Assembly: GCF_003991155.1 (NCBI RefSeq)
Contig: NZ_CP031293.1
Reading direction: 5' to 3' (one strand)
Source of the DNA: Escherichia coli
GTDB taxonomy: Bacteria > Pseudomonadota > Gammaproteobacteria > Enterobacterales > Enterobacteriaceae
DNA length: 64,000 bases
The stretch's first letter is position 1. Each line of letters opens with the position of its first letter. Below are positions 2,286 to 60,954 of this stretch, piece after piece. The position numbers were made by a program, and so were the translations under genes. The notes beneath the pieces were generated by a model. That model made no database searches and was not told the origin of the DNA. It worked only from the letters and a program-made list of their open reading frames with translations.

Positions 2286-2301
2286 CCATCAGCCCGGTCT
2301 T

Positions 2302-2337
2302 GTAGGCCTGATAAGACGCGTGAGCGTCGCATCAGGC
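2302..2337. repeat. REP (repetitive extragenic palindrome) element between cysI and cysH
   Basis: gtaggcctgataagacgcg...gcgtcgcatcaggc imperfect palindrome typical of enterobacterial REP. Confidence 0.6.
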
Positions 2338-2358
2338 AAGGCAAACAGTGAGGAATCT

Positions 2359-3357: not shown

Positions 3358-3510
3358 ATGCTGACAAAATATGCCCTTGTGGCAATCATCGTACTGTGTT
3401 GTACAGTACTGGGATTCACGTTGATGGTAGGCGACTCGTTGTGTGAGTTGAGTATCAGAGAACGTGGTATGGAGTTTAAGGCAGTTCTCGCTTACGAATC
3501 GAAGAAGTAG
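3358..3510 (+). CDS. Hok/Gef-family type I toxin (50 aa, small membrane peptide)
   Basis: ORF below the 60-aa track cutoff, translated by hand: [50 protein letters not shown]; hydrophobic N-terminal helix plus SLCE and AYES motifs shared with Hok/Gef/RelF; GGGAGG Shine-Dalgarno 7 nt upstream. Confidence 0.8.
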
Positions 3511-3515
3511 CCACC

Positions 3516-3575
3516 ACGCGGGGTAAAACCCCGCGTACTGAATTGTGATTGTTTGGCCTCCTGCACCCCTTTTTT
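3516..3575 (+). terminator. hok 3' structure: perfect 9-bp stem-loop, fold-back element complementary to transcript 5' region, then T-tract
   Basis: ACGCGGGGU/ACCCCGCGU stem at 3516-3536; GCCUCCUGCACCC (3557-3569) can pair 11/13 with GGGUGCUUGAGGC at 3216-3228; TTTTTT at 3570-3575. Confidence 0.55.
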
Positions 3576-3635
3576 ATACTCTGTTTCTGGTGGCATTGAT
3601 TTCCTGCAGGCAAGGGAGTAATCATTTCAAACCCA

Positions 3636-4673
3636 TTAAGATGCCTTCGCCAGCTCCTTCACCAACGGTAGCATTATCCGCATAACATCACGGCAGCGAC
3701 GTTCTATTCTTCCTGGAAGTGCCTTATCAATATGCTGTTGATTATCCAGTCTTACGTCATGCCAGCTATTTCCTGCAGGGAATGCGGCTGTTTTTGCGCG
3801 TTGCTGATAACCATCCTTATTCCCAAGATTCCAGTTTGTCGCTTCCACCGAAAGTACAGCAATGCCCGCTTTGTCGAATATTTCTGCGTCATTACAACAC
3901 CCAGTGCCTTTCGGATAGTTTTTATTCAAACCTGGATTTGTGGTGGCGGCAATTCCATGACTGCGGGCAATTGCCAGCGCCCGGTCGCGCGTTAATTTCC
4001 TTACTGCTTCAGGTGTTTTTACGCCACTGTTGAAATACAGCTTATCGCCAACAATCAGATTATCGAGATTAATCACCAATAAAGTATTTTTCTTTTCGGT
4101 ATCACTCATGCGCTTGAGTAAATTCTCAGCGCCTAATTTCCCTTCTTCTTCACCACTGGTTGCCACAAAACGAATGCCATATTCGGTTGGCGTATTTTTC
4201 AGGCGTTCAGCCAGCTCCAGCATGACACCTAAACCTGCGGCGTTATCATCCATTCCTTGTAACGTCAGCCCGCCGAGATTGGCATCGGCGTCAGCATCGC
4301 TCAGCGGGGCGTAAGTATCCAGATGCGCCATAATGATGATCTGCTGCGGCGCTTTGCCTTCATGAGCGGCAATCACCGTACTTCCCGTCACGTTATGCCA
4401 GCTCTTGCGATTATCGCGGGCGGTATAAATATACCGACTATTAAATGTCCGAATATCACTGCGATAACCCATTTGCTGAAACTGTTGGCGAATATAATCG
4501 GCAGATAACATTTCTGCAGGAGTTCCGGTCATGCGTCCCGGAAAGAAAGTAGCAATATGTCGTGCCTGGGTATTAGCAAAATCGCCAGGTTTAGGTGACG
4601 AGGCGTGTACGGGGAGAATAAAGCATACGCCGAGCGCCAGGGCAGCGGTACGGTGGCGCAATGCGGAAAACAT
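3636..4673 (-). CDS. iap: alkaline phosphatase isozyme conversion aminopeptidase
   Basis: 345-aa ORF with signal peptide and M28-type peptidase features; convergent with hok. Confidence 0.9.
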   Translation of the reverse strand: MFSALRHRTAALALGVCFILPVHASSPKPGDFANTQARHIATFFPGRMTGTPAEMLSADYIRQQFQQMGYRSDIRTFNSRYIYTARDNRKSWHNVTGSTVIAAHEGKAPQQIIIMAHLDTYAPLSDADADANLGGLTLQGMDDNAAGLGVMLELAERLKNTPTEYGIRFVATSGEEEGKLGAENLLKRMSDTEKKNTLLVINLDNLIVGDKLYFNSGVKTPEAVRKLTRDRALAIARSHGIAATTNPGLNKNYPKGTGCCNDAEIFDKAGIAVLSVEATNWNLGNKDGYQQRAKTAAFPAGNSWHDVRLDNQQHIDKALPGRIERRCRDVMRIMLPLVKELAKAS

Positions 4674-10999: not shown

Positions 11000-12361
<1,362 letters not shown>

Positions 12362-12500
12362 AACGTGAGGAAATACCTGGATTTTTCCTGGTTATTTTGC
12401 CGCAGGTCAGCGTATCGTGAACATCTTTTCCAGTGTTCAGTATGGTGCCTTGCACGGTAATTATGTCACTGGTTATTAACCAATTTTTCCTGGGGGATAA

Positions 12501-13640
12501 ATGAGCGCGGGAAGCCCAAAATTCACCGTTCGCCGCATTGCGGCTTTGTCACTGGTTTCGCTATGGCTGGCAGGCTGTTCTGACACTTCAAATCCACCGG
12601 CCCCGGTCAGCTCCGTTAATGGCAATGCGCCTGCAAATACCAATTCTGGTATGTTGATTACGCCGCCGCCGAAAATGGGGACGACGTCTACAGCTCAGCA
12701 ACCGCAAATTCAGCCGGTACAGCAGCCACAAATTCAGGCCACTCAACAACCGCAAATCCAGCCGGTGCAGCCAGTAGCTCAGCAGCCGGTACAGATGGAA
12801 AACGGACGCATCGTCTATAACCGTCAGTATGGGAACATTCCGAAAGGCAGTTATAGCGGCAGTACCTATACAGTGAAAAAAGGCGACACACTTTTCTATA
12901 TCGCCTGGATTACTGGCAACGATTTCCGTGACCTTGCTCAGCGCAACAATATTCAGGCACCATACGCGCTGAACGTCGGTCAGACCTTACAGGTGGGGAA
13001 TGCTTCCGGTACGCCAATCACTGGCGGAAATGCCATTACCCAGGCCGACGCAGCAGAGCAAGGAGTTGTGATCAAGCCTGCACAAAATTCCACCGTTGCT
13101 GTTGCTTCGCAACCGACAATTACGTATTCTGAGTCTTCGGGTGAACAGAGTGCTAACAAAATGTTGCCGAACAACAAGCCAACTGCGACCACGGTCACAG
13201 CGCCTGTAACGGTACCAACAGCAAGCACAACCGAGCCGACTGTCAGCAGTACATCAACCAGTACGCCTATCTCCACCTGGCGCTGGCCGACTGAGGGCAA
13301 AGTGATCGAAACCTTTGGCGCTTCTGAGGGGGGCAACAAGGGGATTGATATCGCAGGCAGCAAAGGACAGGCAATTATCGCGACTGCAGATGGACGCGTT
13401 GTTTATGCCGGTAACGCGCTGCGCGGCTACGGTAATCTGATTATCATCAAACATAATGATGATTACCTGAGTGCCTACGCCCATAACGACACAATGCTGG
13501 TCCGGGAACAACAAGAAGTGAAGGCGGGGCAAAAAATAGCAACCATGGGTAGCACCGGAACCAGTTCAACACGCTTGCATTTTGAAATTCGTTACAAGGG
13601 GAAATCCGTAAACCCGCTGCGTTATTTGCCGCAGCGATAA
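12501..13640 (+). CDS. nlpD: murein hydrolase activator lipoprotein NlpD (LysM + M23 peptidase-like)
   Basis: 379-aa ORF; lipobox LAGC; Q/P-rich repeat region; C-terminal M23 domain. Confidence 0.93.
12706..12777 (+). repeat. three in-frame tandem 24-bp repeats inside nlpD encoding (QQPQIQPx)3
   Basis: cagcaaccgcaaattcagccggta / cagcagccacaaattcaggccact / caacaaccgcaaatccagccggtg. Confidence 0.8.
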
Positions 13641-13702
13641 ATCGGCGGAACCAGGCTTTTGCTTGAATGTTCCGTCAAGGGATCACGGGTAGGAGCCACC
13701 TT

Positions 13703-14695
13703 ATGAGTCAGAATACGCTGAAAGTTCATGATTTAAATGAAGATGCGGAATTTGATGAGAACGGAGTTGAGGTTTTTGACGAAAAGGCCTTAGTAGAAGA
13801 GGAACCCAGTGATAACGATTTGGCCGAAGAGGAACTGTTATCGCAGGGAGCCACACAGCGTGTGCTGGACGCGACTCAGCTTTACCTTGGTGAGATTGGT
13901 TATTCACCACTGTTAACGGCCGAAGAAGAAGTTTATTTTGCGCGTCGCGCACTGCGTGGAGATGTTGCCTCTCGCCGCCGGATGATCGAGAGTAACTTGC
14001 GTCTGGTGGTAAAAATTGCCCGCCGTTATGGCAATCGTGGTCTGGCGTTGCTGGATCTTATCGAAGAGGGCAACCTGGGGCTGATCCGCGCGGTAGAGAA
14101 GTTTGACCCGGAACGTGGTTTCCGCTTCTCAACATACGCAACCTGGTGGATTCGCCAGACGATCGAACGGGCGATTATGAACCAAACCCGTACTATTCGT
14201 TTGCCGATTCACATCGTAAAGGAGCTGAACGTTTACCTGCGAACCGCACGTGAGTTGTCCCATAAGCTGGACCACGAACCAAGTGCGGAAGAGATCGCAG
14301 AGCAACTGGATAAGCCAGTTGATGACGTCAGCCGTATGCTTCGTCTTAACGAGCGCATTACCTCGGTAGACACCCCGCTGGGTGGTGATTCCGAAAAAGC
14401 GTTGCTGGACATCCTGGCCGATGAAAAAGAGAATGGTCCGGAAGATACCACGCAAGATGACGATATGAAGCAGAGCATCGTCAAATGGCTGTTCGAGCTG
14501 AACGCCAAACAGCGTGAAGTACTGGCACGTCGATTCGGTTTGCTGGGGTACGAAGCGGCAACACTGGAAGATGTAGGTCGTGAAATTGGCCTCACCCGTG
14601 AACGTGTTCGCCAGATTCAGGTTGAAGGCCTGCGCCGTTTGCGCGAAATCCTGCAAACGCAGGGGCTGAATATCGAAGCGCTGTTCCGCGAGTAA
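13703..14695 (+). CDS. rpoS: RNA polymerase sigma factor RpoS (sigma-38)
   Basis: 330-aa ORF from [11 protein letters not shown]; ORF-track start at 13667 rejected; codon 33 is GAG (Glu). Confidence 0.95.
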
Positions 14696-14712
14696 GTAAG
14701 CATCTGTCAGAA

Positions 14713-14746
14713 AGGCCAGTCTCTTATGAGGCTGGCCTTTTTCTTT
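14713..14746. terminator. hairpin plus T-tract between convergent rpoS and MarR-family gene
   Basis: aggccagtctc / gaggctggcct stem with one mismatch, followed by tttttctttt. Confidence 0.6.
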
Positions 14747-14815
14747 TGTATGGGGAGTTGGTGTGTTTCGTCGCCTGGATAAGACACGTCAGCGTCCCAT
14801 CCGGCAATCAACATC

Positions 14816-15224
14816 CTATTTGCTCATCATCTTGCGCACCAGCTGCATAAACAGCTCCTGCTCTTCTGCACTCAAACGCCCCAAAAATTCCTCATCCACA
14901 CTGTCACCAATCGGTATCGCCGCAGCAAGTACCTTTTCTCCTTCGGCAGTCAGCCAGACAAAGCGTCGCCGCTTATCAGCAGAGTCATGTTCTCGTCTGA
15001 CTAAGCCACGATTTTCCATTCGTGCCAACATTTCTGCCAGCGTTGCTTTGGTGCTGACGGCTGCTTCTATCAGTGCCACCTGTTCGATACCAGGTTTATC
15101 AGCAATGGCGCGCATCACCGCGTACTGTGGTTTGGTCAGATCAGGTAACTCGTGCTGCCAGCGAGCCGTGTGCTGCTGAAAAAGCTGTCGTAACTGATGG
15201 AACGCTTTATTTCGTAACGCCATG
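14816..15224 (-). CDS. MarR/SlyA-family transcriptional regulator
   Basis: Winged-helix MarR-like sequence; ATG at 15224 has a GGAG Shine-Dalgarno, the longer 15256 start does not; divergent from the decarboxylase operon. Confidence 0.75.
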
Positions 15225-15369
15225 TAAACTCCGGGCAAACTATCTGCCGCTATCATAGCGGTTTTTCAGTGACGCAGGGGATGTTGTTACTTTTCAGTGC
15301 TTGCCGCGATGAGAACAGAGGCGTATTTTAATAATAACGTTCGTGTACGAACAATTAAGAGAATTAACA

Positions 15370-15963
15370 ATGAGACTGATCGTCGGGATGACAGGGGCCA
15401 CCGGAGCGCCTCTTGGTGTGGCATTACTGCAAGCGCTGCGGGAGATGCCGAATGTCGAGACTCATCTGGTGATGTCGAAGTGGGCGAAAACCACCATTGA
15501 ACTGGAAACGCCTTACAACGCCCGCGATGTTGCTGCCCTCGCAGACTTCTGCCATAACCCGGCGGATCAGGCCGCAACCATCTCCTCAGGTTCCTTTCGT
15601 ACCGACGGCATGATCGTTATTCCGTGCAGTATGAAAACGCTCGCCGGTATCCGTGCCGGTTACGCCGATGGCCTGGTGGGGCGCGCGGCGGACGTCGTGC
15701 TCAAAGAAGGCCGCAAACTGGTGCTGGTGCCGCGTGAAATGCCGCTTAGCACAATCCATCTCGAAAATATGCTCGCACTTTCGCGCATGGGCGTGGCGAT
15801 GGTGCCGCCGATGCCTGCCTTTTATAACCATCCCGAAACGGTAGATGACATTGTCCACCACGTGGTAGCCCGCGTGCTGGATCAATTTGGCCTCGAACAT
15901 CCTCACGCCAGGCGCTGGCAAGGATTGCCGCAGGCCCGGAATTTTTCTCAGGAGAATGAATAA
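15370..15963 (+). CDS. UbiX-family flavin prenyltransferase (decarboxylase subunit B-like)
   Basis: 197-aa ORF starting MRLIVGMTGATGA, typical UbiX/Pad1 N-terminus; first of three tightly linked genes. Confidence 0.8.
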   Translation: MRLIVGMTGATGAPLGVALLQALREMPNVETHLVMSKWAKTTIELETPYNARDVAALADFCHNPADQAATISSGSFRTDGMIVIPCSMKTLAGIRAGYADGLVGRAADVVLKEGRKLVLVPREMPLSTIHLENMLALSRMGVAMVPPMPAFYNHPETVDDIVHHVVARVLDQFGLEHPHARRWQGLPQARNFSQENE

Positions 15964-17390
15964 TGGCATTTGATGATTTACGCAGCTTTTTACAGGCGCT
16001 CGACGACCATGGGCAATTGCTGAAAATCAGCGAAGAGGTGAACGCGGAACCGGATCTGGCAGCAGCAGCTAACGCCACCGGGCGTATCGGCGACGGCGCG
16101 CCCGCGCTGTGGTTTGATAATATTCGCGGCTTTACCGATGCCCGCGTGGCAATGAACACCATCGGTTCCTGGCAGAACCACGCGATTTCCCTCGGCCTGC
16201 CGCCAAATACCCCGGTTAAAAAACAGATTGATGAGTTTATCCGCCGCTGGGATAACTTCCCGATTGCCCCGGAGCGCCGCGCCAATCCGGCCTGGGCGCA
16301 GAACACCGTTGATGGCGACGAGATCAACCTGTTCGATATCCTGCCGCTGTTTCGTTTAAACGATGGCGATGGCGGTTTCTATCTCGACAAAGCGTGCGTG
16401 GTTTCCCGCGATCCGCTTGATCCGGATAACTTCGGCAAGCAGAACGTCGGCATCTACCGTATGGAAGTGAAGGGTAAGCGTAAGCTCGGTCTGCAACCGG
16501 TGCCGATGCACGATATCGCCCTGCATCTGCATAAAGCGGAAGAGCGCGGTGAAGATCTGCCGATTGCCATCACCCTGGGTAACGACCCGATCATCACCCT
16601 GATGGGGGCCACGCCGCTGAAATACGATCAGTCCGAGTACGAAATGGCGGGCGCGCTGCGCGAAAGTCCGTACCCGATCGCCACCGCTCCGCTGACCGGT
16701 TTTGATGTGCCGTGGGGCTCGGAGGTGATCCTCGAAGGAGTCATCGAAAGCCGCAAACGCGAGATTGAAGGGCCATTCGGTGAGTTTACCGGCCACTACT
16801 CCGGCGGGCGCAATATGACCGTCGTGCGCATTGATAAAGTCTCTTATCGCAGCAAACCCATTTTTGAATCGCTCTATCTCGGGATGCCGTGGACGGAAAT
16901 CGACTACCTGATGGGGCCAGCCACCTGTGTGCCGCTGTATCAACAACTGAAAGCTGAGTTCCCGGAAGTGCAGGCGGTAAACGCCATGTACACCCACGGC
17001 CTGCTGGCGATTATCTCCACCAAAAAACGCTACGGTGGCTTTGCCCGCGCGGTGGGCCTCCGTGCGATGACCACGCCGCACGGTCTGGGCTACGTGAAGA
17101 TGGTGATTATGGTCGATGAAGACGTTGATCCGTTCAACCTGCCGCAGGTGATGTGGGCGCTCTCTTCGAAAGTGAACCCGGCAGGGGATTTGGTGCAGTT
17201 GCCGAATATGTCCGTGCTGGAACTCGACCCTGGCTCAAGTCCGGCGGGGATCACCGACAAGCTGATTATCGACGCCACCACGCCTGTCGCCCCGGACAAC
17301 CGTGGTCACTACAGTCAGCCGGTGGTGGATTTACCGGAAACCAAAGCCTGGGCTGAAAAACTGACCGCTATGCTGGCCGCACGTCAATAA
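15963..17390 (+). CDS. UbiD-family non-oxidative aromatic acid decarboxylase (subunit C-like)
   Basis: 475-aa ORF; start overlaps upstream stop; UbiD-like length and sequence. Confidence 0.8.
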   Translation: MAFDDLRSFLQALDDHGQLLKISEEVNAEPDLAAAANATGRIGDGAPALWFDNIRGFTDARVAMNTIGSWQNHAISLGLPPNTPVKKQIDEFIRRWDNFPIAPERRANPAWAQNTVDGDEINLFDILPLFRLNDGDGGFYLDKACVVSRDPLDPDNFGKQNVGIYRMEVKGKRKLGLQPVPMHDIALHLHKAEERGEDLPIAITLGNDPIITLMGATPLKYDQSEYEMAGALRESPYPIATAPLTGFDVPWGSEVILEGVIESRKREIEGPFGEFTGHYSGGRNMTVVRIDKVSYRSKPIFESLYLGMPWTEIDYLMGPATCVPLYQQLKAEFPEVQAVNAMYTHGLLAIISTKKRYGGFARAVGLRAMTTPHGLGYVKMVIMVDEDVDPFNLPQVMWALSSKVNPAGDLVQLPNMSVLELDPGSSPAGITDKLIIDATTPVAPDNRGHYSQPVVDLPETKAWAEKLTAMLAARQ

Positions 17391-17400
17391 GGAGAACAAG

Positions 17401-17637
17401 ATGATTTGTCCACGTTGTGCCGATGAACAGATTGAAGTGATGGCGAAATCGCCGGTAAAAGATGTCTGGACGGTATATCAGTGCCAGCATTGCCTTTATA
17501 CCTGGCGCGATACCGAACCGCTGCGCCGCACCAGCCGCGAACATTATCCCGAAGCGTTCCGCATGACGCAGAAAGATATTGATGACGCGCCGATGGTGCC
17601 GAGCATCCCGCCGCTGCTGGCGGAAGGTAAGTGTTAA
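17401..17637 (+). CDS. small decarboxylase subunit D-like protein with CxxC...CxxC motif
   Basis: 78-aa ORF MICPRCADEQ...CQHCLYTW, 10 bp downstream of the UbiD-like gene. Confidence 0.65.
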   Translation: MICPRCADEQIEVMAKSPVKDVWTVYQCQHCLYTWRDTEPLRRTSREHYPEAFRMTQKDIDDAPMVPSIPPLLAEGKC

Positions 17638-17646
17638 TAAAAAAGT

Positions 17647-17674
17647 GCCGGGTAGAGGCTTTGCTTTACCCGGC
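17647..17674. terminator. hairpin between convergent decarboxylase operon and pphB
   Basis: gccgggta...tacccggc 8-bp stem. Confidence 0.4.
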
Positions 17675-17678
17675 CACG

Positions 17679-18335
17679 TTATTTAATTTTATAAAACGAT
17701 AACCGTCTGCTTTCCGGCGAGCCGGTATCAATATAAACCTGATTGGCAAATGTCTGGATATTTATAAACATCATATGTCCAAAGATAAAACAGTCGGCAC
17801 CGTTTATTTCTTTTAACTCTCCCTTGAATGATTTCTGCACGCGATCAACAGGCCAGAGTAATTCGCTTTCTGCTATTTCTTTACCAAACTGATATTCATC
17901 ACCCGGATAATCTGCATGTGCGATGACATATTTTATGTTGTCGTTAGTGATTTCAATAATATGTGGAAGGTGATGGAATTTCAGCAACAGATCTATTGCC
18001 TCTTGTTGCTCTGAATCATTTAAATTGAAAAACCAGTCACCACCGCTGGCAAGCCACATATTTCCATCGCCAGTTTCGAATGCCTCAAGCGCCATCGCTT
18101 CGTGGTTGCCTTTAGCCGATGTAAACCAGGGCTGGTTTAGCAGGCGCAGCACGTTAAGACTCTCCGGCCCACGATCAATATTATCGCCGACAGAAATAAG
18201 TAAGTCGGTTTCAGGGCAAAAAGAGAGTTGATGTAAGCGGGATTGTAATAATTGATAGTCACCATGAATATCACCAACGGCCCATATATGGCGATAGTGA
18301 TGGGCATTGATTTTTTGATAGCGTGTAGATGGCAT
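17679..18335 (-). CDS. pphB: serine/threonine protein phosphatase 2
   Basis: 218-aa ORF with metallophosphatase motifs GDIHGD, GDNIDRG, GNHE. Confidence 0.9.
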   Translation of the reverse strand: MPSTRYQKINAHHYRHIWAVGDIHGDYQLLQSRLHQLSFCPETDLLISVGDNIDRGPESLNVLRLLNQPWFTSAKGNHEAMALEAFETGDGNMWLASGGDWFFNLNDSEQQEAIDLLLKFHHLPHIIEITNDNIKYVIAHADYPGDEYQFGKEIAESELLWPVDRVQKSFKGELKEINGADCFIFGHMMFINIQTFANQVYIDTGSPESRRLSFYKIK

Positions 18336-18440
18336 GGTTTTACCCTGTAAAATAAGATTTCCTATTATACAGGGTATTTTTATTTGATTCGTCAGTTGTC
18401 GTTAATATTCCCGATAGCAAAAGACTATCGGGAATTGTTA

Positions 18441-21002
18441 TTACACCAGACTCTTCAAGCGATAAATCCACTCCAGCGCCTGACGCGGAGTCAGTGAATC
18501 CGGGTCGAGGTTTTCCAGTGCCTCGACCGCAGGCGAAGTTTCTTCCGGTAGGGACAGCAAAGACATTTGTGTACCATCCACTTGCGTAGCAGCGGCGTTC
18601 GGCGAAATGCTTTCCAGCTCACGCAGTTTTTGCCGTGCGCGCTTAATAACCTCTTTTGGCACGCCCGCCAGAGCAGCAACCGCCAGGCCGTAGCTTTTGC
18701 TCGCCGCGCCATCCTGCACGCTGTGCATAAAGGCAATGGTGTCGCCGTGCTCCAGCGCATCGAGATGCACGTTGGCGACGCCTTCCATTTTCTCCGGCAG
18801 TTGGGTCAGCTCGAAATAGTGGGTAGCAAACAGCGTCAACGCTTTGATCTTATTTGCCAGATTTTCCGCGCATGCCCACGCCAGCGACAGACCATCGTAA
18901 GTGGAAGTTCCGCGCCCAATCTCATCCATCAGCACCAGACTGTACTCGGTGGCGTTATGTAAAATATTGGCGGTTTCGGTCATCTCCACCATAAAGGTTG
19001 AACGCCCGGATGCCAGATCGTCTGCCGCGCCTACGCGGGTAAAGATACGGTCGATCGGGCCAATCTCGACTTTTTGCGCCGGTACGTAGCTGCCGATATA
19101 CGCCATCAGCGCAATCAACGCGGTCTGGCGCATATAGGTACTTTTACCGCCCATGTTCGGACCGGTAATGATCAACATGCGGCGCTGCGGCGACAGGTTC
19201 AGCGGGTTAGCGATAAACGGCTCATTCAGTACTTGTTCAACTACCGGATGGCGACCTTCGGTAATGCGAATACCCGGTTTATCAATAAAGGTCGGGCAGG
19301 TGTAGTTCAGGGTATAGGCCCGTTCCGCCAGGTTCACCAGCACGTCGAGTTCCGCCAGCGCGCTCGCGCTCTGTTGCAACGCTTCCAGATGCGGCAACAG
19401 CAGGTCGAACAGCTCTTCATAAAGTTGTTTTTCCAGAGCCAGTGCTTTGCCTTTTGAGGTGAGAACTTTATCTTCGTACTCTTTCAGCTCCGGAATAATG
19501 TAACGCTCGGCGTTTTTCAGCGTCTGGCGGCGCATGTAGTTAATCGGTGCCAGATGGCTTTGCCCACGGCTGATCTGAATGTAGTAGCCGTGCACTGCAT
19601 TAAAGCCAACTTTCAGCGTGTCCAGGCCGGTACGTTCACGCTCGCGGACCTCCAGACGCTCCAGATAATCGGTCGCACCGTCAGCCAGCGCGCGCCACTC
19701 ATCCAGCTCTTCGTTATAGCCCGATGCGATAACACCACCGTCGCGTACCAGCACCGGTGGTGTGTCGATGATTGCTCGCTCCAGCAGATCGCGCAGCTCG
19801 GCAAACTCGCCCATCTTCTCACGCAGCGCTTGTACCGGTGCACTATCGACATTTTCTAACTGCGCACGCAACTCCGGCAGTTGCTGGAAAGCGTGGCGCA
19901 TACGGGCCAGATCGCGCGGGCGAGCAGTACGTAACGCCAGACGCGCCAGAATACGTTCCAGGTCGCCCACCTGACGCAGCACAGGCTGTATCTCGGCGGT
20001 GAAATCCTGCAATGCGCCAATAGTTTGCTGGCGCTCAAGCAACACGCGGGTATCGCGCACTGGCATATGCAGCCAGCGTTTCAGCATACGACTACCCATC
20101 GGCGTTACAGTGCAGTCGAGCACTGAAGCCAGCGTGTTTTCCGCACCGCCCGCCAGGTTCTGAGTAATTTCCAGGTTACGACGCGTCGCGGCATCCATAA
20201 TGATGCTGTCCTGCTCACGTTCCATGGTGATAGAACGAATATGCGGCAGGGTCGTGCGTTGGGTATCTTTCGCATACTGCAACAGACAACCGGCAGCACA
20301 AAGTCCGCGCGGCGCGTTCTCGACGCCAAAACCGACCAGATCGCGGGTGCCAAATTGCAGATTCAACTGCTGGCGCGCAGTGTCGATTTCAAACTCCCAC
20401 AGCGGACGACGACGCAGGCCGCGACGACCTTCAATCAGCGACATCTCGGCGAAATCTTCTGCATACAACAGCTCTGCCGGGTTGGTACGTTGCAGCTCTG
20501 CAGCCATCGTTTCGCGGTCCGCCGGTTCGCTAAGGCGAAAACGCCCGGAGCTGATATCCAACGTCGCGTAGCCGAACCCTTTGCTGTCCTGCCAGATAGC
20601 TGCCAGCAGGTTATCCTGACGCTCCTGCAACAGCGCTTCATCGCTGATGGTGCCCGGCGTAACGATACGGACAACTTTGCGCTCGACCGGCCCTTTGCTG
20701 GTCGCCGGATCGCCAATTTGTTCGCAGATGGCAACGGACTCGCCCTGATTCACCAGTTTGGCGAGATAGTTTTCCACCGCATGGTAGGGGATCCCCGCCA
20801 TCGGGATCGGCTCTCCCGCGGAAGCACCGCGTTTGGTCAGTGAAATATCCAGCAGCTGCGAGGCGCGTTTCGCGTCGTCATAAAACAGTTCGTAAAAGTC
20901 ACCCATCCGATAGAACAGCAGGATCTCGGGATGCTGGGCTTTCAGCTTGAGATACTGCTGCATCATTGGCGTATGGGCATCAAAATTTTCTATTGCACTC
21001 AT
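18441..21002 (-). CDS. mutS: DNA mismatch repair protein MutS
   Basis: 853-aa ORF; Walker [10 protein letters not shown]; recognised MutS sequence. Confidence 0.97.
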
Positions 21003-21248
21003 GGAGTTATGTCCGGTTCCCTGATATTAAATGGGGTGTGATGGTTTTTATTTTCGTTGTAATCACATAAGGCGCACATGATACCGGAGTTAATCATTTC
21101 AGGGGAAGAAGCGAACGGCGAGTTCTTGATGGTGATTCCGGGAAAGATGCTGTTTTGCAGCTTTTGCGTGATGCTTATGAAGCAAGTACGCAAAATTGCG
21201 TCGGTTGAATAAACCTCCTCCTTCAGAGCCATAGTCCCCTTTCAAATT

Positions 21249-21271
21249 AAGTTGTAATATAAATACACCTT
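21249..21271 (+). promoter_or_regulatory. imperfect inverted repeat upstream of ygbA, candidate NsrR-type operator
   Basis: aagttgtaata-t-aaatacacctt, 18 bp upstream of ygbA start. Confidence 0.35.
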
Positions 21272-21288
21272 AAGAGTATGGAGGCAGC

Positions 21289-21633
21289 ATGTCCGGCAAG
21301 CGTATCTCTCGTGAAAAACTGACGATTAAAAAAATGATCGATCTTTATCAAGCGAAATGCCCGCAGGCGTCAGCGGAGCCGGAGCATTACGACGCGCTGT
21401 TTGCCTACGCGCAAAAGCGGCTGGATAAATGTGTGTTCGGCGAAGAGAAACCAGCCTGTAAGCAGTGTCCGGTGCACTGTTACCAGCCAGCAAAGCGTGA
21501 AGAGATGAAACAGATTATGCGTTGGGCCGGGCCGCGAATGCTGTGGCGTCATCCGATCTTAACCGTGCGTCATCTCATCGATGACAAGCGTCCGGTGCCG
21601 GAGTTGCCAGAAAAATATCGTCCAAAGAAATAA
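21289..21633 (+). CDS. ygbA: YgbA (nitrous-oxide-stimulated promoter family protein)
   Basis: 114-aa ORF with Cys-rich motifs; divergent from mutS. Confidence 0.85.
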   Translation: MSGKRISREKLTIKKMIDLYQAKCPQASAEPEHYDALFAYAQKRLDKCVFGEEKPACKQCPVHCYQPAKREEMKQIMRWAGPRMLWRHPILTVRHLIDDKRPVPELPEKYRPKK

Positions 21634-21637
21634 ATCT

Positions 21638-21660
21638 GCCGGAGAGCCATACTCTCCGGC
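21638..21660. terminator. hairpin between convergent ygbA and molbindin gene
   Basis: gccggagag-ccata-ctctccggc perfect 9-bp stem. Confidence 0.5.
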
Positions 21661-21671
21661 AAATAAGGCGT

Positions 21672-22100
21672 TTACGCTTTGGTGGCAATCAGGATGGCTG
21701 ATGCTTTGATCAATGCAATAACGCGCGAGCCAGTGGTGAGTTTCATTTCATCCTGACTTTCATTTGTTACCACTGCCACAATTTCAAAACCCGCATCCGT
21801 TTTGATATGGACAGTGGCGTTCACTGCGCCTTCGGTGATTGTCGACACGCTGCCAGCAAACTGGTTGCGAGCAGAGAATTTCAGTCCACAGTCTTCCGTT
21901 GCCAGTGTTACCCACGGGGCTTTAATCAGGGCAATCGCTTCTTTCCCTTTTGCCAGACCAAGAGCCTGCTGGCTGCTGTGTGTAACAATTGCCACCAGCT
22001 TTGCACCACCTGCCAGCGTCAGTTCTACTTCATCATTCACAGCGCCCATTGCTACTGCGCTAACTGTTCCGGTTAATTGATTTCTTGCTGAAACTGCCAT
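21672..22100 (-). CDS. tandem TOBE (Mop) domain molybdate-binding protein (molbindin)
   Basis: 142-aa product from MAVSARNQLTG; two SARNQ-containing repeats; AGGAGG Shine-Dalgarno before ATG at 22100. Confidence 0.75.
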   Translation of the reverse strand: MAVSARNQLTGTVSAVAMGAVNDEVELTLAGGAKLVAIVTHSSQQALGLAKGKEAIALIKAPWVTLATEDCGLKFSARNQFAGSVSTITEGAVNATVHIKTDAGFEIVAVVTNESQDEMKLTTGSRVIALIKASAILIATKA

Positions 22101-22144
22101 ACTGCCTCCTTTCATTGAATGTTGATCGAGTATAACCACATCTG

Positions 22145-24223
22145 TTAAATCAATGCCGATTTATCAATTCCCAGTCGCTTCATCCGTGACAGCAGGGTCG
22201 TGCGTTTCAGCCCCAGACGTTGCGCAGCGCCTTTAGGTCCGGCAACCACGCCGTTAGTTTCTTTCAGCACGCGAACAATCAACTGATATTCATCTTCGCC
22301 CTCCTGAGCGACAACCGTTGCGGCAGGCGGCGTTTCAGGTTCTGGTAAAGCAATATCTGGCAATGACAGCTGCAGCACGTTGCCGCGTGTTAGCAATACC
22401 GCGCGCTCAATGACGTTTTCCAGCTCACGCACGTTGCCCGGCCATTCCATGTTGCTCAGGATGCGCAGCGTCTCGGCAGGAATGCTGTCGATATTGCGCC
22501 CCAGACGACGGGCAATTTTGAAGGTAAAGGCTTTCGCCAGCAGCGGAATATCTTCCGGACGCTCGCGTAGTGGCGGCAGGTGGATCGGGAATACGTTCAG
22601 GCGGTAATAGAGATCGCTACGGAACTCTCGGTCGGCGACCATTTTTTTCAGATCGCGGTTAGTCGCGGCAATTAAACGTACGTCCGTCTGAATGATTTTG
22701 TTGCTGCCAAGACGTTCAAACTCCTGTTCCTGTAATACACGCAGCAACTTCGGCTGTAACTCCAGCGGCATATCGCCCACTTCATCGAGGAATAGTGAGC
22801 TTTTATCCGCCAGTTCAAAACGACCAATGCGCTGAGCGCTGGCACCGGTAAAAGCCCCACGCTCATGACCAAATAGATCGCTTTCCAGCAATCCGGCAGG
22901 CATCGCCGCGCAGTTCATTTTGACCATGCGGCGATTATTACGCCCACTGAGATTATGGATCGCGCGGGCAATCAGCTCTTTACCTGTACCAGTTTCACCG
23001 AGGATCAGCACGGTACTGTCACTTTGCGCCACCATTTCAACTTGTTTAAGTACGCTGTACATGGCTTCGCTGCGGCCAATAATCTCGCCAAATTCACTAT
23101 CAACATTGTTGAGCTGCTCGGTCAGGGCGAGGTTTTCATCAACCAGCCGTTCTTTCAGACGATGAATTTCCTGATAGGCGAGGGCGTTATCGACAGCGAT
23201 TGCCACACGTTCGGCAATCTGGCGCAGTAAGCTCAGATTGGTAGTGGTAAATACTTTCTCTTCGCATTGCGCCAGTTTCAGCACGCCCAGCATGGTGTCG
23301 CCAGACATCAGCGGTAACAGGCACAAGGTTTGAATCTGGTTGCCCCAGGTGTCGAACAACATGCGTTCATAGGGGGCTAAATCGTCCCGCTCGTGGAGAT
23401 TAATCAACAGCATCTCTTTACTTTTGAAGACGCGTTCGGTGAGGGTTCCGGCTTCATCGACTTCGCTCTGTTCGTGGGCGGGATGCTGTTTATCAAGATA
23501 GTGAGTGGAGTAGATGTTGAGTTTGTTTTTACGGTGGCTGCGTAAGACAATGCTGATATCGTCAATGTCGAAATAGTAATGGATTTCTTTGGCGACTTCG
23601 CTGACCAGTTCGTCCATATCCAGGCGGGAAAGCACCGCGTTGGTGATGGCGACCAGGATGCGGAAGTTATCGCGTTCCCGGCATAACAACTCATAGTCGA
23701 CATTGTTAACGACGCGGCTCTGGATTTGTTCGGTGACGACAGAAACGATCTGCGTAAATGTTTGCAGGCGATTGAACTCTTTTTCACTCCACGGGCGATC
23801 GTCATAACGAATAAATTCACAGCCACCAAAAATATGCCCTTCCGCCGCCAGTGGCATCAGGCAATAGTGACCAAATTTGGGGTATAGCCCACCTGCGGCC
23901 AGCTGCGGCCAGGTTTCACAAAATTCTTCGTAACTGCAATGCAGCGTATCAGGGCGCGACAAAATGCTGCGTACCGGACCGTGTGCCAGAACAGTTTCGT
24001 CTTCATATTTAATGGGGGTGTCTTTTTCACGCGACGCGTAATAAGACGCACGTTGAGTCTGCGCTTGCCACAACACAATAGCCGCGTTGTCGGCGAGCGC
24101 AGAACGCTTTACCAGTTGCGAAAGAGCCTCACACAGCGAGGCCAGATCGGGCTGCTGCAATAGTGTCCGAGTGATGTCGAACAACCCTTGTTGTCCGAGA
24201 TCACTCATCGGTGTATATGACAT
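22145..24223 (-). CDS. fhlA: formate hydrogenlyase transcriptional activator (sigma-54 dependent)
   Basis: 692 aa from MSYTPMSDLGQQ; GAF domains plus AAA+ sigma-54 activator motifs ([14 protein letters not shown]) and C-terminal HTH. Confidence 0.95.
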   Translation of the reverse strand: MSYTPMSDLGQQGLFDITRTLLQQPDLASLCEALSQLVKRSALADNAAIVLWQAQTQRASYYASREKDTPIKYEDETVLAHGPVRSILSRPDTLHCSYEEFCETWPQLAAGGLYPKFGHYCLMPLAAEGHIFGGCEFIRYDDRPWSEKEFNRLQTFTQIVSVVTEQIQSRVVNNVDYELLCRERDNFRILVAITNAVLSRLDMDELVSEVAKEIHYYFDIDDISIVLRSHRKNKLNIYSTHYLDKQHPAHEQSEVDEAGTLTERVFKSKEMLLINLHERDDLAPYERMLFDTWGNQIQTLCLLPLMSGDTMLGVLKLAQCEEKVFTTTNLSLLRQIAERVAIAVDNALAYQEIHRLKERLVDENLALTEQLNNVDSEFGEIIGRSEAMYSVLKQVEMVAQSDSTVLILGETGTGKELIARAIHNLSGRNNRRMVKMNCAAMPAGLLESDLFGHERGAFTGASAQRIGRFELADKSSLFLDEVGDMPLELQPKLLRVLQEQEFERLGSNKIIQTDVRLIAATNRDLKKMVADREFRSDLYYRLNVFPIHLPPLRERPEDIPLLAKAFTFKIARRLGRNIDSIPAETLRILSNMEWPGNVRELENVIERAVLLTRGNVLQLSLPDIALPEPETPPAATVVAQEGEDEYQLIVRVLKETNGVVAGPKGAAQRLGLKRTTLLSRMKRLGIDKSALI

Positions 24224-24296
24224 TTTGTTCTTCCAGGAAAGCACCGCAAAGCGGTGCAAAAGGTCATTGACTAACTATAGGAGATTTAGAATTTTA

Positions 24297-25307
24297 TTAG
24301 CATATACGCGGAAGCGGTTCGGCGTGTGGTAAATCGAGGGTTCGTTTCACGCCATACAGACCGGCAAGACGAACACCTTTACGTTCCACCACTTCACCAA
24401 TCAGCGCCGCGTCTTTCCCCAGTGGATGGGAATGTAACGCTGCCAGCACTTGCTCTGCCGCGTTGCGTTCAACGGCGATCACCAGTTTGCCTTCGTTGGC
24501 AAAGTTAAGGGCGTCCAGTCCCAGCAGCTCGCAAACGCCACGCACAGCAGGTTTAACCGGCAGTGCCGCTTCTGAAAGTTCAATACCACAACCGCAGGCT
24601 GCCGCGAACTCATGTACCACCGCGTTTACACCACCACGGGTGGCATCACGCAGCGCTTTCACGCCGGGAATGTCACGCAGCGTCTGAATAAGCGGCGTTA
24701 GTACGGCACAGTCGCTGACCAGTTCGCCATCCAGCCCCAGCTGCTCACGCAGGTTAAGGATAGTCGCCCCGTGGTCGCCGAGTGTACCGCTAACCAGCAA
24801 TACATCGCCTGCGGTTAGCGTCTGTGCGCCCCAGTGAATATTCGCCGGAATTGCGCCCATACCAGCGGTGTTGATAAACAGTTTATCTGCCGCGCCGCGC
24901 TGCACCACTTTAGTGTCGCCAGTAACGATGGCAATGCCTGCCGCGCGGGCGGTTTCTGCCATGCTGGTCACAACGGCTTTCAGCGTCTCCATCGGTAATC
25001 CTTCTTCAAGGATAAAGCCACAGGAGAGATAACGCGGAATAGCGCCACTGACCGCTACGTCGTTCGCGGTGCCGCAAATCGCCAGCTTGCCGATATTGCC
25101 ACCAGGAAAGAACAGCGGGTCGATGACGTAGCTGTCGGTGGTGAACGCCAGACGGTCGCCTTCCGCTACCAGCTGCGCCAGATCAAGACGTGCCTGATCT
25201 TCCTGCTCTGCCAGCCACGGGTTGGCAAAGGCTTCCATAAACAGGCTGTTGATTAATTGCTGCATCGCCTGGCCGCCGCTACCGTGGGCGAGTTGGATAT
25301 TATTCAC
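24297..25307 (-). CDS. hypE: hydrogenase maturation carbamoyl dehydratase HypE
   Basis: 336-aa ORF, PurM-like; C-terminal PRIC. Confidence 0.9.
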   Translation of the reverse strand: MNNIQLAHGSGGQAMQQLINSLFMEAFANPWLAEQEDQARLDLAQLVAEGDRLAFTTDSYVIDPLFFPGGNIGKLAICGTANDVAVSGAIPRYLSCGFILEEGLPMETLKAVVTSMAETARAAGIAIVTGDTKVVQRGAADKLFINTAGMGAIPANIHWGAQTLTAGDVLLVSGTLGDHGATILNLREQLGLDGELVSDCAVLTPLIQTLRDIPGVKALRDATRGGVNAVVHEFAAACGCGIELSEAALPVKPAVRGVCELLGLDALNFANEGKLVIAVERNAAEQVLAALHSHPLGKDAALIGEVVERKGVRLAGLYGVKRTLDLPHAEPLPRIC

Positions 25308-36798: not shown

Positions 36799-36862
36799 TG
36801 CCCGATGCGCAACGCTTATCGGGCCTTGTAGGCCGGATAAGGCGTTCACGCCGCATCCGGCA
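36799..36862. repeat. BIME: two adjacent REP-type palindromic units
   Basis: ttgcccgatgcgcaacgcttatcgggcc and gtaggccggataaggcgttcacgccgcatccggca. Confidence 0.7.
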
Positions 36863-36869
36863 CGGTTAC

Positions 36870-39760
<2,891 letters not shown>

Positions 39761-54876: not shown

Positions 54877-55374
54877 ATGACTGACAGTGAACTGATGCAG
54901 TTAAGCGAACAGGTTGGGCAGGCGCTGAAAGCCCGTGGCGCAACCGTAACAACTGCTGAGTCTTGTACCGGCGGTTGGGTAGCGAAAGTGATTACCGATA
55001 TTGCCGGCAGTTCCGCCTGGTTTGAACGCGGATTTGTCACCTACAGTAACGAAGCAAAAGCGCAAATGATCGGTGTACGCGAAGAGACGCTGGCGCAGCA
55101 TGGTGCGGTGAGCGAACCTGTCGTGGTGGAAATGGCGATAGGCGCACTGAAAGCGGCTCGTGCTGATTACGCCGTGTCTATTAGTGGTATCGCCGGGCCG
55201 GATGGCGGCAGTGAAGAGAAGCCTGTCGGCACCGTCTGGTTTGCTTTTGCCACCGCCCGCGGCGAAGGTATTACCCGCCGGGAATGCTTCAGCGGTGACC
55301 GTGATGCGGTGCGTCGTCAGGCTACTGCGTATGCATTGCAGACCTTGTGGCAACAATTTCTACAAAACACTTGA
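54877..55374 (+). CDS. pncC: NMN amidohydrolase (CinA-like C-terminal domain)
   Basis: 165 aa from MTDSELMQLSEQ. Confidence 0.88.
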   Translation: MTDSELMQLSEQVGQALKARGATVTTAESCTGGWVAKVITDIAGSSAWFERGFVTYSNEAKAQMIGVREETLAQHGAVSEPVVVEMAIGALKAARADYAVSISGIAGPDGGSEEKPVGTVWFAFATARGEGITRRECFSGDRDAVRRQATAYALQTLWQQFLQNT

Positions 55375-55375
55375 T

Positions 55376-56515
<1,140 letters not shown>

Positions 56516-60892: not shown

Positions 60893-60954
60893 TCTCTTAC
60901 TTGATATGGCTTTAGTAGCGGTATCAATATCAGCAGTAAAATAAATTTCCCGAT

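Follow-up and report, generated by a model that had tools for sequence, protein, structure and literature searches.

Stem-loops at three convergent gene junctions in the mutS-rpoS region of an Escherichia coli chromosome as probable transcript 3'-end elements

Bidirectional terminators at convergent gene pairs are established in Escherichia coli (Ju et al. 2019, by SEnd-seq, as cited in bioRxiv 10.1101/2022.10.23.513370). For REP elements, partly Rho-dependent termination and a stabilising role have been reported, together with a link to higher expression of convergent pairs (bioRxiv 10.64898/2026.03.23.713779). In this study, hairpins were analysed in a window of 64,000 nucleotides of E. coli chromosome, a near-exact match to strain 2016C-3878, that spans the mutS-rpoS (fhlA-nlpD) region. 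Compared with this region as described by Ewers et al. 2014 (PMC4209514), the window shows the pattern without o454/ygbN and with slyA-like/kpdBCD; the c3292 molybdenum-pterin-binding gene beside fhlA is present in the window too. Hairpins of this type are familiar features, and the mosaic nature of the region is likewise established.

Gene calls were taken from the RefSeq annotation of the near-identical record NZ_CP029747.1 (100% match over 12500-24300), with Pfam domains added (Table 1). The preliminary description had placed one stem-loop at each of the rpoS/MarR (J1), hadD/pphB (J2) and ygbA/TOBE (J3) junctions. Sequence and annotation bore this out, each hairpin lying where it had been placed, between the stop codons of a convergent pair. 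The gene labels given there agreed with Pfam, which returned MarR, UbiX- and UbiD-like decarboxylase subunits, the metallophosphatase PphB, YgbA_NO and double TOBE; by annotation and Pfam, hadB, hadC and hadD encode subunits B (UbiX-like), C (UbiD-like) and D of a non-oxidative hydroxyarylic acid decarboxylase.

Table 1. Genes and palindromes at the three convergent junctions (positions in the window)
Feature	Coordinates	Strand	Remarks and basis
rpoS CDS	13703..14695	+	Upstream gene of J1; annotation
J1, rpoS intrinsic terminator	14711..14747	+	AAA, stem 14714-14737, U-tract TTTTTCTTTT
REP-like imperfect palindrome	14766..14809	.	Between rpoS terminator and MarR stop codon
MarR-family regulator gene	14816..15223	-	Convergent with rpoS; annotation; Pfam MarR, E 4.9e-12
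hadB-hadC-hadD operon	15370..17637	+	Annotation; Pfam Flavoprotein and UbiD domains
J2, A-tract and palindrome	17638..17674	.	A-tract 17638-17644, palindrome 17647-17674; folding, sequence
pphB, serine/threonine phosphatase 2	17679..18335	-	Convergent with hadD; annotation; Pfam Metallophos
ygbA	21289..21633	+	Annotation; Pfam YgbA_NO, E 4e-41
J3, hairpin and minus-strand tail	21624..21660	-	Hairpin 21638-21660, 9-10 pairs; folding, terminator scan
Double-TOBE (molbindin-like) gene	21672..22100	-	Annotation; Pfam TOBE, 2 stretches
fhlA	22145..24223	-	Core gene upstream of TOBE gene, same strand; annotation

J1, J2 and J3 are very probably ordinary transcription-unit 3'-end elements of the nlpD-rpoS ... 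mutS ... fhlA region of E. coli. Hairpin-only energies on the plus and minus strands were -19.2 and -14.1 kcal/mol for J1, -20.0 and -14.7 kcal/mol for J2, and -16.8 and -18.0 kcal/mol for J3. The plus-strand hairpin of J1 and those of J2 and J3 on both strands (-14 to -20 kcal/mol) lay 4-18 nt from stop codons. When folds of 70-75 nt were compared with 200 dinucleotide shuffles, the z-scores were -3.8 (+) and -4.5 (-) for J1, -3.4 (+) and -2.2 (-) for J2, and -4.4 (+) and -5.4 (-) for J3; the minus-strand fold of J2 was modest, 7 of the 200 shuffles being equally good. Among the non-overlapping local optima of all 40-nt windows in the 64 kb, J1 ranked 2nd in energy, J3 9th and J2 23rd.

In a terminator scan of positions 12000-25000, the three longest stems were those of J1 (15 pairs), J2 (14 pairs) and J3 (11 pairs). 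The scan reports J2 on the plus strand only, because a mismatch on the minus strand takes the loop beyond the 8-nt limit; direct folding recovers the minus-strand hairpin, followed by ACUUUUUU. Perfect stems of at least 9 bp were found at 7 sites, all but one of them intergenic, where about 2 sites would be expected. This count includes J3 and misses J1 and J2 owing to the G-U pairs in their stems, so energy ranking was used for both. Lax terminator-like matches in the same interval (20) were little above those in shuffles (14.1, sd 3.6). Such weak enrichment, together with several coding windows equally stable in the 40-nt ranking, would suit palindromes that arose by chance or serve as non-RNA features (protein-binding sites, recombination scars) with no role in transcription, but the positions just past stop codons, the shuffle z-scores and the excess of perfect, mostly intergenic stems argue against this reading, as do the RNA 3' ends mapped where K-12 has its J1 homologue and the conservation with compensatory stem changes described below. 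It is extremely improbable, even though homology between alternative arrangements stops at J1 itself and adjacent to J2 and J3.

The number of U residues in the first 8 nt after the stem was 7 for J1 plus, 6 for J2 minus, 4 for J3 minus, 4 for J1 minus, 3 for J2 plus and 1 for J3 plus. Terminator prediction on both strands, proposed in the preliminary description as a check, gave uneven results: a U-rich tail was present for rpoS (J1, plus) and pphB (J2, minus) and less clearly for fhlA-TOBE (J3, minus). On the hadD and ygbA strands no U-tract accompanies the hairpin, and for MarR the tail is only UUUCUG. Strong asymmetry between strands was seen in all hairpins and had been overlooked earlier; that of the U-tracts argues against symmetric intrinsic action.

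J1 is the canonical intrinsic (Rho-independent) terminator of rpoS. Its stem (GGCCAGTCTC/GAGGCTGGCC; 10 pairs including one G-U) begins 18 nt past the rpoS stop codon, encloses the loop TTAT and runs into the U-tract given in Table 1. In K-12 Term-seq data, the primary rpoS 3' end, 2866510(-), lies 7 nt beyond the J1-homologous stem (PMC7815308, supplementary file 1); K-12 TRS data give rpoS 3' ends at 2866506 and 2866510 and a second end, 2866465, at the next hairpin (PMC10687069). Published mapping thus places the 3' ends of the K-12 homologue of J1 inside the U-tract. Compared with the K-12 terminator, the stem and its spacing from the rpoS stop codon are identical, a U-tract follows, and the junction is convergent in both. 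The loop differs: this strain has TTAT, whereas the six further E. coli sequences in the comparison have AAGC. The U-tract is longer here (UUUUUCUUUU versus UUUUCUG in K-12). Where a REP-like palindrome and the MarR gene lie in this strain, K-12 carries a second hairpin, on the ygbN side.

The J1 stem was the same in seven E. coli arrangements, including K-12, O111, O157 and a flavodoxin/MBL-type strain, irrespective of the next gene. A hairpin search anchored on the T-tract in rpoS downstream regions found a hairpin with T-tract 3' of rpoS in 116 of 119 Enterobacterales species, at most 130 nt from the stop codon (median 17 nt), and compensatory changes were observed at four stem pairs of J1 among 47 Enterobacteriaceae sequences. 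By the usual mechanism, the GC-rich hairpin would form in the nascent RNA and the U-tract after it would weaken the RNA-DNA hybrid, so that polymerase would be released a few nucleotides into the U-tract. The sole Rfam match in 12000-25000, to ctRNA_p42d at J1, scored 28.6 bits, below the gathering score of 50, and was treated as a generic hairpin-plus-U match rather than as a ctRNA.

In the same gap, J1 is trailed by a REP-like palindrome missed in the preliminary description. It aligns with an O111 counterpart and with two canonical REPs found elsewhere in the window (2296-2345 and 36823-36872), and its minus-strand fold has an energy of -22.8 kcal/mol. Its head is degenerate, GTCG instead of the GTAG that the O111 counterpart keeps. 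Set against the REP/BIME elements of enterobacteria, it resembles a diverged E. coli REP.

J2 (GCCGGGTAGAG-GCTTTG-CTTTACCCGGC) begins 9 nt past the hadD stop codon and finishes 4 nt before that of pphB. On the minus strand, the hairpin and its U-rich tail have the canonical terminator form for pphB; on the plus strand, the hairpin at the 3' end of hadD is stronger but lacks a U-tract beside it. With its U-tract on the minus strand, J2 would serve pphB if it acts as a canonical terminator. An orthologous palindrome directly 3' of hadD was found in a small alignment of 10 sequences, 5 of them Escherichia-like, among these a MAG that bears the label Pseudocitrobacter, and the other 5 from Citrobacter, Pseudocitrobacter and Lelliottia. 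In it 91% of cells were paired, and 2 pairs showed compensatory change; changes such as GCCGGGT/ACCCGGC to GCCCGGT/ACCGGGC preserve pairing. The A-run upstream of J2 was kept in most of the aligned homologues. On this model, the A-run past the hadD stop codon would be read as a U-tract on the opposite strand, so that J2 would terminate pphB transcripts in the canonical intrinsic way. For hadD, J2 would most likely be a pause site and a 3'-end stabiliser against exonucleases, like REP-type hairpins, and termination there may be helped by Rho or polymerase collision.

J2 and the REP-like palindrome behind J1 could instead both be REP-type elements that mainly stabilise mRNA 3' ends or cause partly Rho-dependent attenuation, without intrinsic termination. 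The alignment of the latter palindrome with canonical REPs, the GTAG head of its O111 counterpart and the missing U-tract on the hadD strand of J2 agree with this, and J2 homologues in Citrobacter youngae and Pluralibacter end in GGCCTAC, one C. youngae copy being paired with an inverted E. coli-type REP. J2 may correspond to the REP class that is abundant in Klebsiella and Enterobacter. In E. coli, however, J2 has GGCCAC instead of GGCCTAC and a canonical U-tract on the pphB strand, and a BLAST search with 48 nt found it as a single copy in 809 of 5426 genomes, always at the pphB end. A regular-expression search of 1.1 Mb of enterobacterial loci found no copies of the motif beyond the hadD site except a few unrelated matches. 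With a single place per genome and a motif confined to the hadD site, membership of J2 among the REPs is not established, and the REP-type reading is rather unlikely as the main account. It overlaps with the transcript-end explanation, and the two are compatible.

J3 (GCCGGAGAG-CCATA-CTCTCCGGC) begins 4 nt past the ygbA stop codon and finishes 11 nt before that of the TOBE gene. Its minus-strand tail, AGAUUUAUUUCUUU (21637 down to 21624), is U-rich and interrupted; the plus-strand (ygbA) tail, AAAUAAGG, has no U-tract. The minus strand of J3 is likely the 3' end of the fhlA-TOBE transcript: hairpin and interrupted U-tract would close the fhlA(-TOBE) transcript, and the ygbA strand would have the hairpin only. 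In K-12, which is without the TOBE gene, the counterpart of J3, GCCGGACAG...CTGTCCGGC, lies between ygbA and fhlA. The stems of the two E. coli alleles, a small sample, differ by one compensatory pair, G:C to C:G. For ygbA, fhlA, pphB (sense) and ygbI, no 3' ends are listed in the two K-12 data sets (PMC7815308 and PMC10687069). The former (file 2) gives a K-12 Rho termination region antisense within pphB at 2860217(-), which we read as ygbI-side transcription passing the hairpin of the equivalent K-12 junction; if so, such hairpins can leak. The analysis thus shows the hairpins' structure, position, strand asymmetry, conservation and covariation, to which published data add RNA 3' ends for the K-12 homologue of J1; actual termination at J2 and J3, as well as any bidirectional or collision-assisted action, is inferred.

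The preliminary description had also proposed that the hairpins insulate inserted accessory genes from neighbouring core genes. What stands of this is that transcript-end hairpins lie at the convergent junctions and probably restrict transcription from running on into the convergent neighbour. As a property of inserted genes, insulation did not hold up, core junctions having equal hairpins and J1 and J3 being independent of the neighbouring gene. All 6 gapped convergent junctions in the window had a hairpin of -21 kcal/mol or better, including the core pairs hok/iap, hypF/norW and a hypothetical gene/ascB; the best fold at divergent junctions did not go beyond -17.3. Since every gapped convergent pair has one, such hairpins are no particular means of insulating inserted genes.

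The TOBE gene, present in 1889 of 5426 E. coli genomes (about 35%), lies 44 nt downstream of the core gene fhlA on the same strand. The window fold scan found no hairpin in this gap, where the best fold was only -6 kcal/mol, so no insulation separates the TOBE gene from fhlA; the TOBE gene has a strong ribosome-binding site (AAAGGAGG) and is probably co-transcribed with fhlA. Moreover, the order rpoS then MarR-hadBCD, with unchanged orientation, recurs in Citrobacter, Kluyvera, Leclercia, Lelliottia, Enterobacter, Klebsiella and others. Being so widespread beside rpoS in Enterobacteriaceae, the cluster is not a recent insert, which corrects the earlier view; it looks ancestral and lost in K-12 rather than inserted here.

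A dedicated system, in which every inserted module would come with or acquire a stem-loop of its own and so be separated transcriptionally from core genes, would account for J2 travelling with the hadBCD module across genera and for each alternative mutS-rpoS segment bearing its own convergent-end hairpin (the ygbN and ygbI/pphB hairpins in K-12 and O111). Against this, J1 and J3 go with core genes and are kept irrespective of the adjoining gene, and the equally strong hairpins of core-core junctions, the lack of separation between fhlA and the TOBE gene and the spread of MarR-hadBCD all count in the same direction. Such a system is very improbable and, given these comparisons, largely refuted. 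The hairpins were inherited with their genes rather than serving as an insulation device.

Boundaries of the mosaic segments adjoin terminator or REP palindromes. Homology between arrangements ends a few bases from the U-tract of the rpoS terminator, at the stop codon of pphB, next to J2, and at J3 itself. The slot between hadD and pphB holds a 35-bp palindrome in this strain and a 6-kb ygbI-ygbN cluster in the O111 type. Given these breaks at hairpins and the shared slot, palindromes might be hot spots of illegitimate or REP-mediated recombination that swaps transcription units. The breakpoints are equally explained by selection, since only indels sparing genes and terminators survive, and it is distinctly unlikely that exchange within the mutS-rpoS mosaic takes place at the hairpins themselves. 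Ewers et al. 2014 (PMC4209514) is silent on hairpins, and the word 'terminator' is absent from that paper; the adjacency of boundaries and hairpins was observed in the present analysis. Past annotation, the three probable transcript ends have little significance, in a well-studied typing region that is used medically.

Compared with REP elements, J2 is like the REP-like GGCCTAC palindromes at the same site in Citrobacter and Pluralibacter; it differs in being single-copy in E. coli, where REPs have many dispersed copies, and in lacking the CTAC tail. At the sequence level, the likeness to bidirectional terminators consists of one stem-loop between converging stop codons in short gaps of 38-120 nt; in contrast, the canonical U-tract of each hairpin is confined to a single strand. 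The RNA polymerase collision model requires a stem-loop to position collisions (bioRxiv 10.1101/2022.10.23.513370), and such a stem-loop is present at J1, J2 and J3.

The region between positions 12500 and 24300 had a 100% match in many complete E. coli chromosomes, and the window as a whole showed 2 mismatches to NZ_CP029747.1 (strain 2016C-3878, reverse strand) up to position 60906. Gene names and coordinates were taken from the annotation of this near-identical record, and the gene labels of the preliminary description all agreed with Pfam. Stem-loops had been described there at three convergent junctions, rpoS/MarR (J1), hadD/pphB (J2), and ygbA/TOBE (J3); all three were present at exactly the positions claimed and were the longest stems found by a terminator scan of the region. 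With lax settings, the scan gave 20 matches overall compared with 14.1 in shuffled sequences (sd 3.6), which is little excess.

Genes and stem-loops of the region, with folding energies, z-scores, and stability ranks (non-overlapping local optima among 40-nt folds in the 64-kb window)
Feature	Position	Strand	Energy, +/− (kcal/mol)	z, +/−	Rank
nlpD					
rpoS	13703–14695	+			
J1	14714–14737		−19.2/−14.1	−3.8/−4.5	2
REP-type palindrome	14766–14809				10
MarR-family gene	14816–15223	−			
hadB, hadC, hadD (non-oxidative hydroxyarylic acid decarboxylase subunits)	15370–17637	+			
slot between hadD and pphB stops	17638–17681				
J2	17647–17674		−20.0/−14.7	−3.4/−2.2	23
pphB	17679–18335	−			
mutS-pphB spacer (105 nt)	18336–18440	−			
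spacer hairpin 1	18407–18435				
mutS	18441–21002	−			
hypothetical gene (44 aa)	between mutS and ygbA				
ygbA	21289–21633	+			
J3	21638–21660		−16.8/−18.0	−4.4/−5.4	9
TOBE-domain gene	21672–22100	−			
fhlA	22145–24223	−			
palindrome upstream of recA	55374–55395				

Elsewhere in the window, a Hok/Gef toxin gene was located 125 nt after iap (hok/gef to iap, approximately 3358–4673), followed by cysH. Type I-E cas genes lie beside iap in two other E. coli (L004 and L008), with an annotated CRISPR array in L008 as well; the CRISPR-Cas locus appears to be missing from this strain. The palindrome upstream of recA is perfect (ATACTGTATGAGCATACAGTAT) and presumably represents a LexA (SOS) box, which it resembles. 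From 60907 the window diverged from NZ_CP029747.1, just upstream of the tRNA-Arg/tRNA-Ser array of that record; an insertion or deletion, such as a different tRNA-Arg copy number, would possibly explain this.

The best reading of J1–J3 is that they are ordinary transcript-end hairpins, a role that we infer for J2 and J3. J1 was followed by UUUUUCUUUU on the rpoS strand versus only UUUCUG on the MarR strand, J2 by ACUUUUUU on the pphB strand versus CACGUUAUUU on the hadD strand, and J3 by AGAUUUAUUUCUUU on the fhlA/TOBE strand versus AAAUAAGG on the ygbA strand. Since the U-rich tails are thus one-sided, canonical intrinsic terminators are present only for rpoS and pphB and, less clearly, for fhlA-TOBE.

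Through homology to the mapped K-12 terminator, J1 can be regarded as proven to be the rpoS terminator. Term-seq of K-12 placed a primary rpoS 3′ end at 2866510(−) (PMC7815308, supplementary file 1), 7 nt beyond the stem as counted on the printed sequence, and an independent data set gave rpoS ends at 2866506 and 2866510, with a second end, 2866465, at the ygbN-side hairpin (PMC10687069). The stem was identical in K-12, O111, O157, two strains in which MarR-hadBCD and the ygb genes are combined, and one whose rpoS is followed by a flavodoxin/MBL-fold segment; homology between arrangements stopped at or just past the J1 U-tract. By these comparisons, the stem can be considered independent of downstream gene content. 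The loop (14724–14727) was TTAT here versus AAGC in all 6 other E. coli compared, a change of four consecutive nucleotides; this allele appears rare, because only 70 of 5401 genomes matched the junction at ≥99%. A degenerate rpoS 3′ end, searched in one genome per species, gave 120 loci, 119 of them with enough downstream sequence, and in 116 of the 119 a single hairpin and then a T-tract lay ≤130 nt from the stop codon (median distance 17 nt, median −18.6 kcal/mol). Stem sequences differed in Serratia, Pantoea, and Erwinia, and compensatory changes were found at four stem pairs among 47 Enterobacteriaceae sequences.

By its distribution, J2 can be assigned to the had operon. Among 5426 E. coli genomes, 809 carried it, in every case at the end adjoining pphB, and the palindrome was found in Escherichia sp. 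E1V33 and directly 3′ of the hadD stop in Citrobacter werkmanii, C. youngae, another Citrobacter, Pseudocitrobacter, and Lelliottia. In an alignment of 10 sequences, 91% of cells were paired and two pairs had changed on both sides, which would lend modest support in so small a sample. The slot between the hadD and pphB stops holds a 35-bp palindrome in this strain and O157, and in the O111 type (L003 12078–18170) a 6-kb ygbN-ygbI cluster that has hairpins of its own at the ends; K-12 instead lacks MarR-hadBCD. In strains carrying both MarR-hadBCD and ygbN-ygbI, hadD is followed by a symmetric ygbN hairpin (A-run, stem, T-run) in place of J2, and K-12, which has no J2, carries another hairpin at its ygbI/pphB junction. 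The latter may be leaky, with transcription from the ygbI side as the putative source, since bicyclomycin data place a Rho termination region inside pphB, in antisense orientation, at 2860217(−) (Rho score 5.9; PMC7815308).

J2 may have descended from a REP-type element, because several homologues end in GGCCTAC and one in C. youngae is linked to an inverted REP of the E. coli type. J2 itself departs from the REP class in copy number, REP elements being multi-copy and J2 present once per genome in E. coli. On the hadD strand, J2 could plausibly have a REP-like role as stabiliser or attenuator, as could the diverged REP-type palindrome that lies between J1 and the MarR stop codon. This palindrome, unlisted in the preliminary description, has the head GTCG here versus GTAG in its O111 counterpart. 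The mutS-pphB spacer contains two strong hairpins (together −36.7 kcal/mol, z −7.4), the first with a perfect 11-bp stem and the second ending at the pphB ribosome-binding site; the primary mutS 3′ end of K-12 lies just before the pphB start codon (2859758-9).

J3 would be older than the difference between strains in the TOBE gene. K-12 and other strains without this gene carry GCCGGACAG-GCAGAT-CTGTCCGGC in the gap that separates the ygbA stop from the fhlA stop, and this strain carries GCCGGAGAG-CCATA-CTCTCCGGC, with one pair swapped on both sides and another loop. The TOBE segment (approximately 480 bp), whose gene was found in 1889 of 5426 genomes, is situated between J3 and the fhlA stop. 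No terminator-like site was detected by terminator scan or folding in the 44-nt fhlA-TOBE gap, where the best fold was only −6 kcal/mol and a strong ribosome-binding site lies at the end; the TOBE gene is likely co-transcribed with fhlA.

The hairpins had been proposed to insulate inserted accessory genes from core neighbours. The proposal holds in part: the hairpins would act as terminators, but they are not specific to accessory genes, as all 6 gapped convergent junctions of the window (hok/iap, rpoS/MarR, hadD/pphB, ygbA/TOBE, hypothetical gene/ascB, and hypF/norW) have one, the best folds being −21.4 to −25.1 kcal/mol; the seven divergent junctions gave −7.4 to −17.3 kcal/mol. Moreover, the MarR-hadBCD cluster looks old and lost from some E. 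coli lineages, since many genera of Enterobacteriaceae share the order rpoS, MarR (−), hadB, hadC, hadD (+), and finally pphB or mutS (−). In Serratia, Pantoea, and Erwinia, mutS is directly convergent with rpoS, and in a further E. coli arrangement (L009) rpoS is followed by flavodoxin and MBL-fold genes. In Salmonella enterica subsp. arizonae (L087), the cluster after rpoS is inverted (hadD−, hadC−, hadB−, MarR+) and followed by a ygbI-like gene and then mutS, so that rpoS converges on hadD and not on the MarR gene.

Collision-assisted bidirectional termination, a known mechanism, requires a stem-loop between convergent genes (bioRxiv 10.1101/2022.10.23.513370), and could serve those strands at J1–J3 that have no U-tract. 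The region is already documented as a polymorphic mosaic (PMC4209514), and elements of the J1–J3 kind are likewise known.
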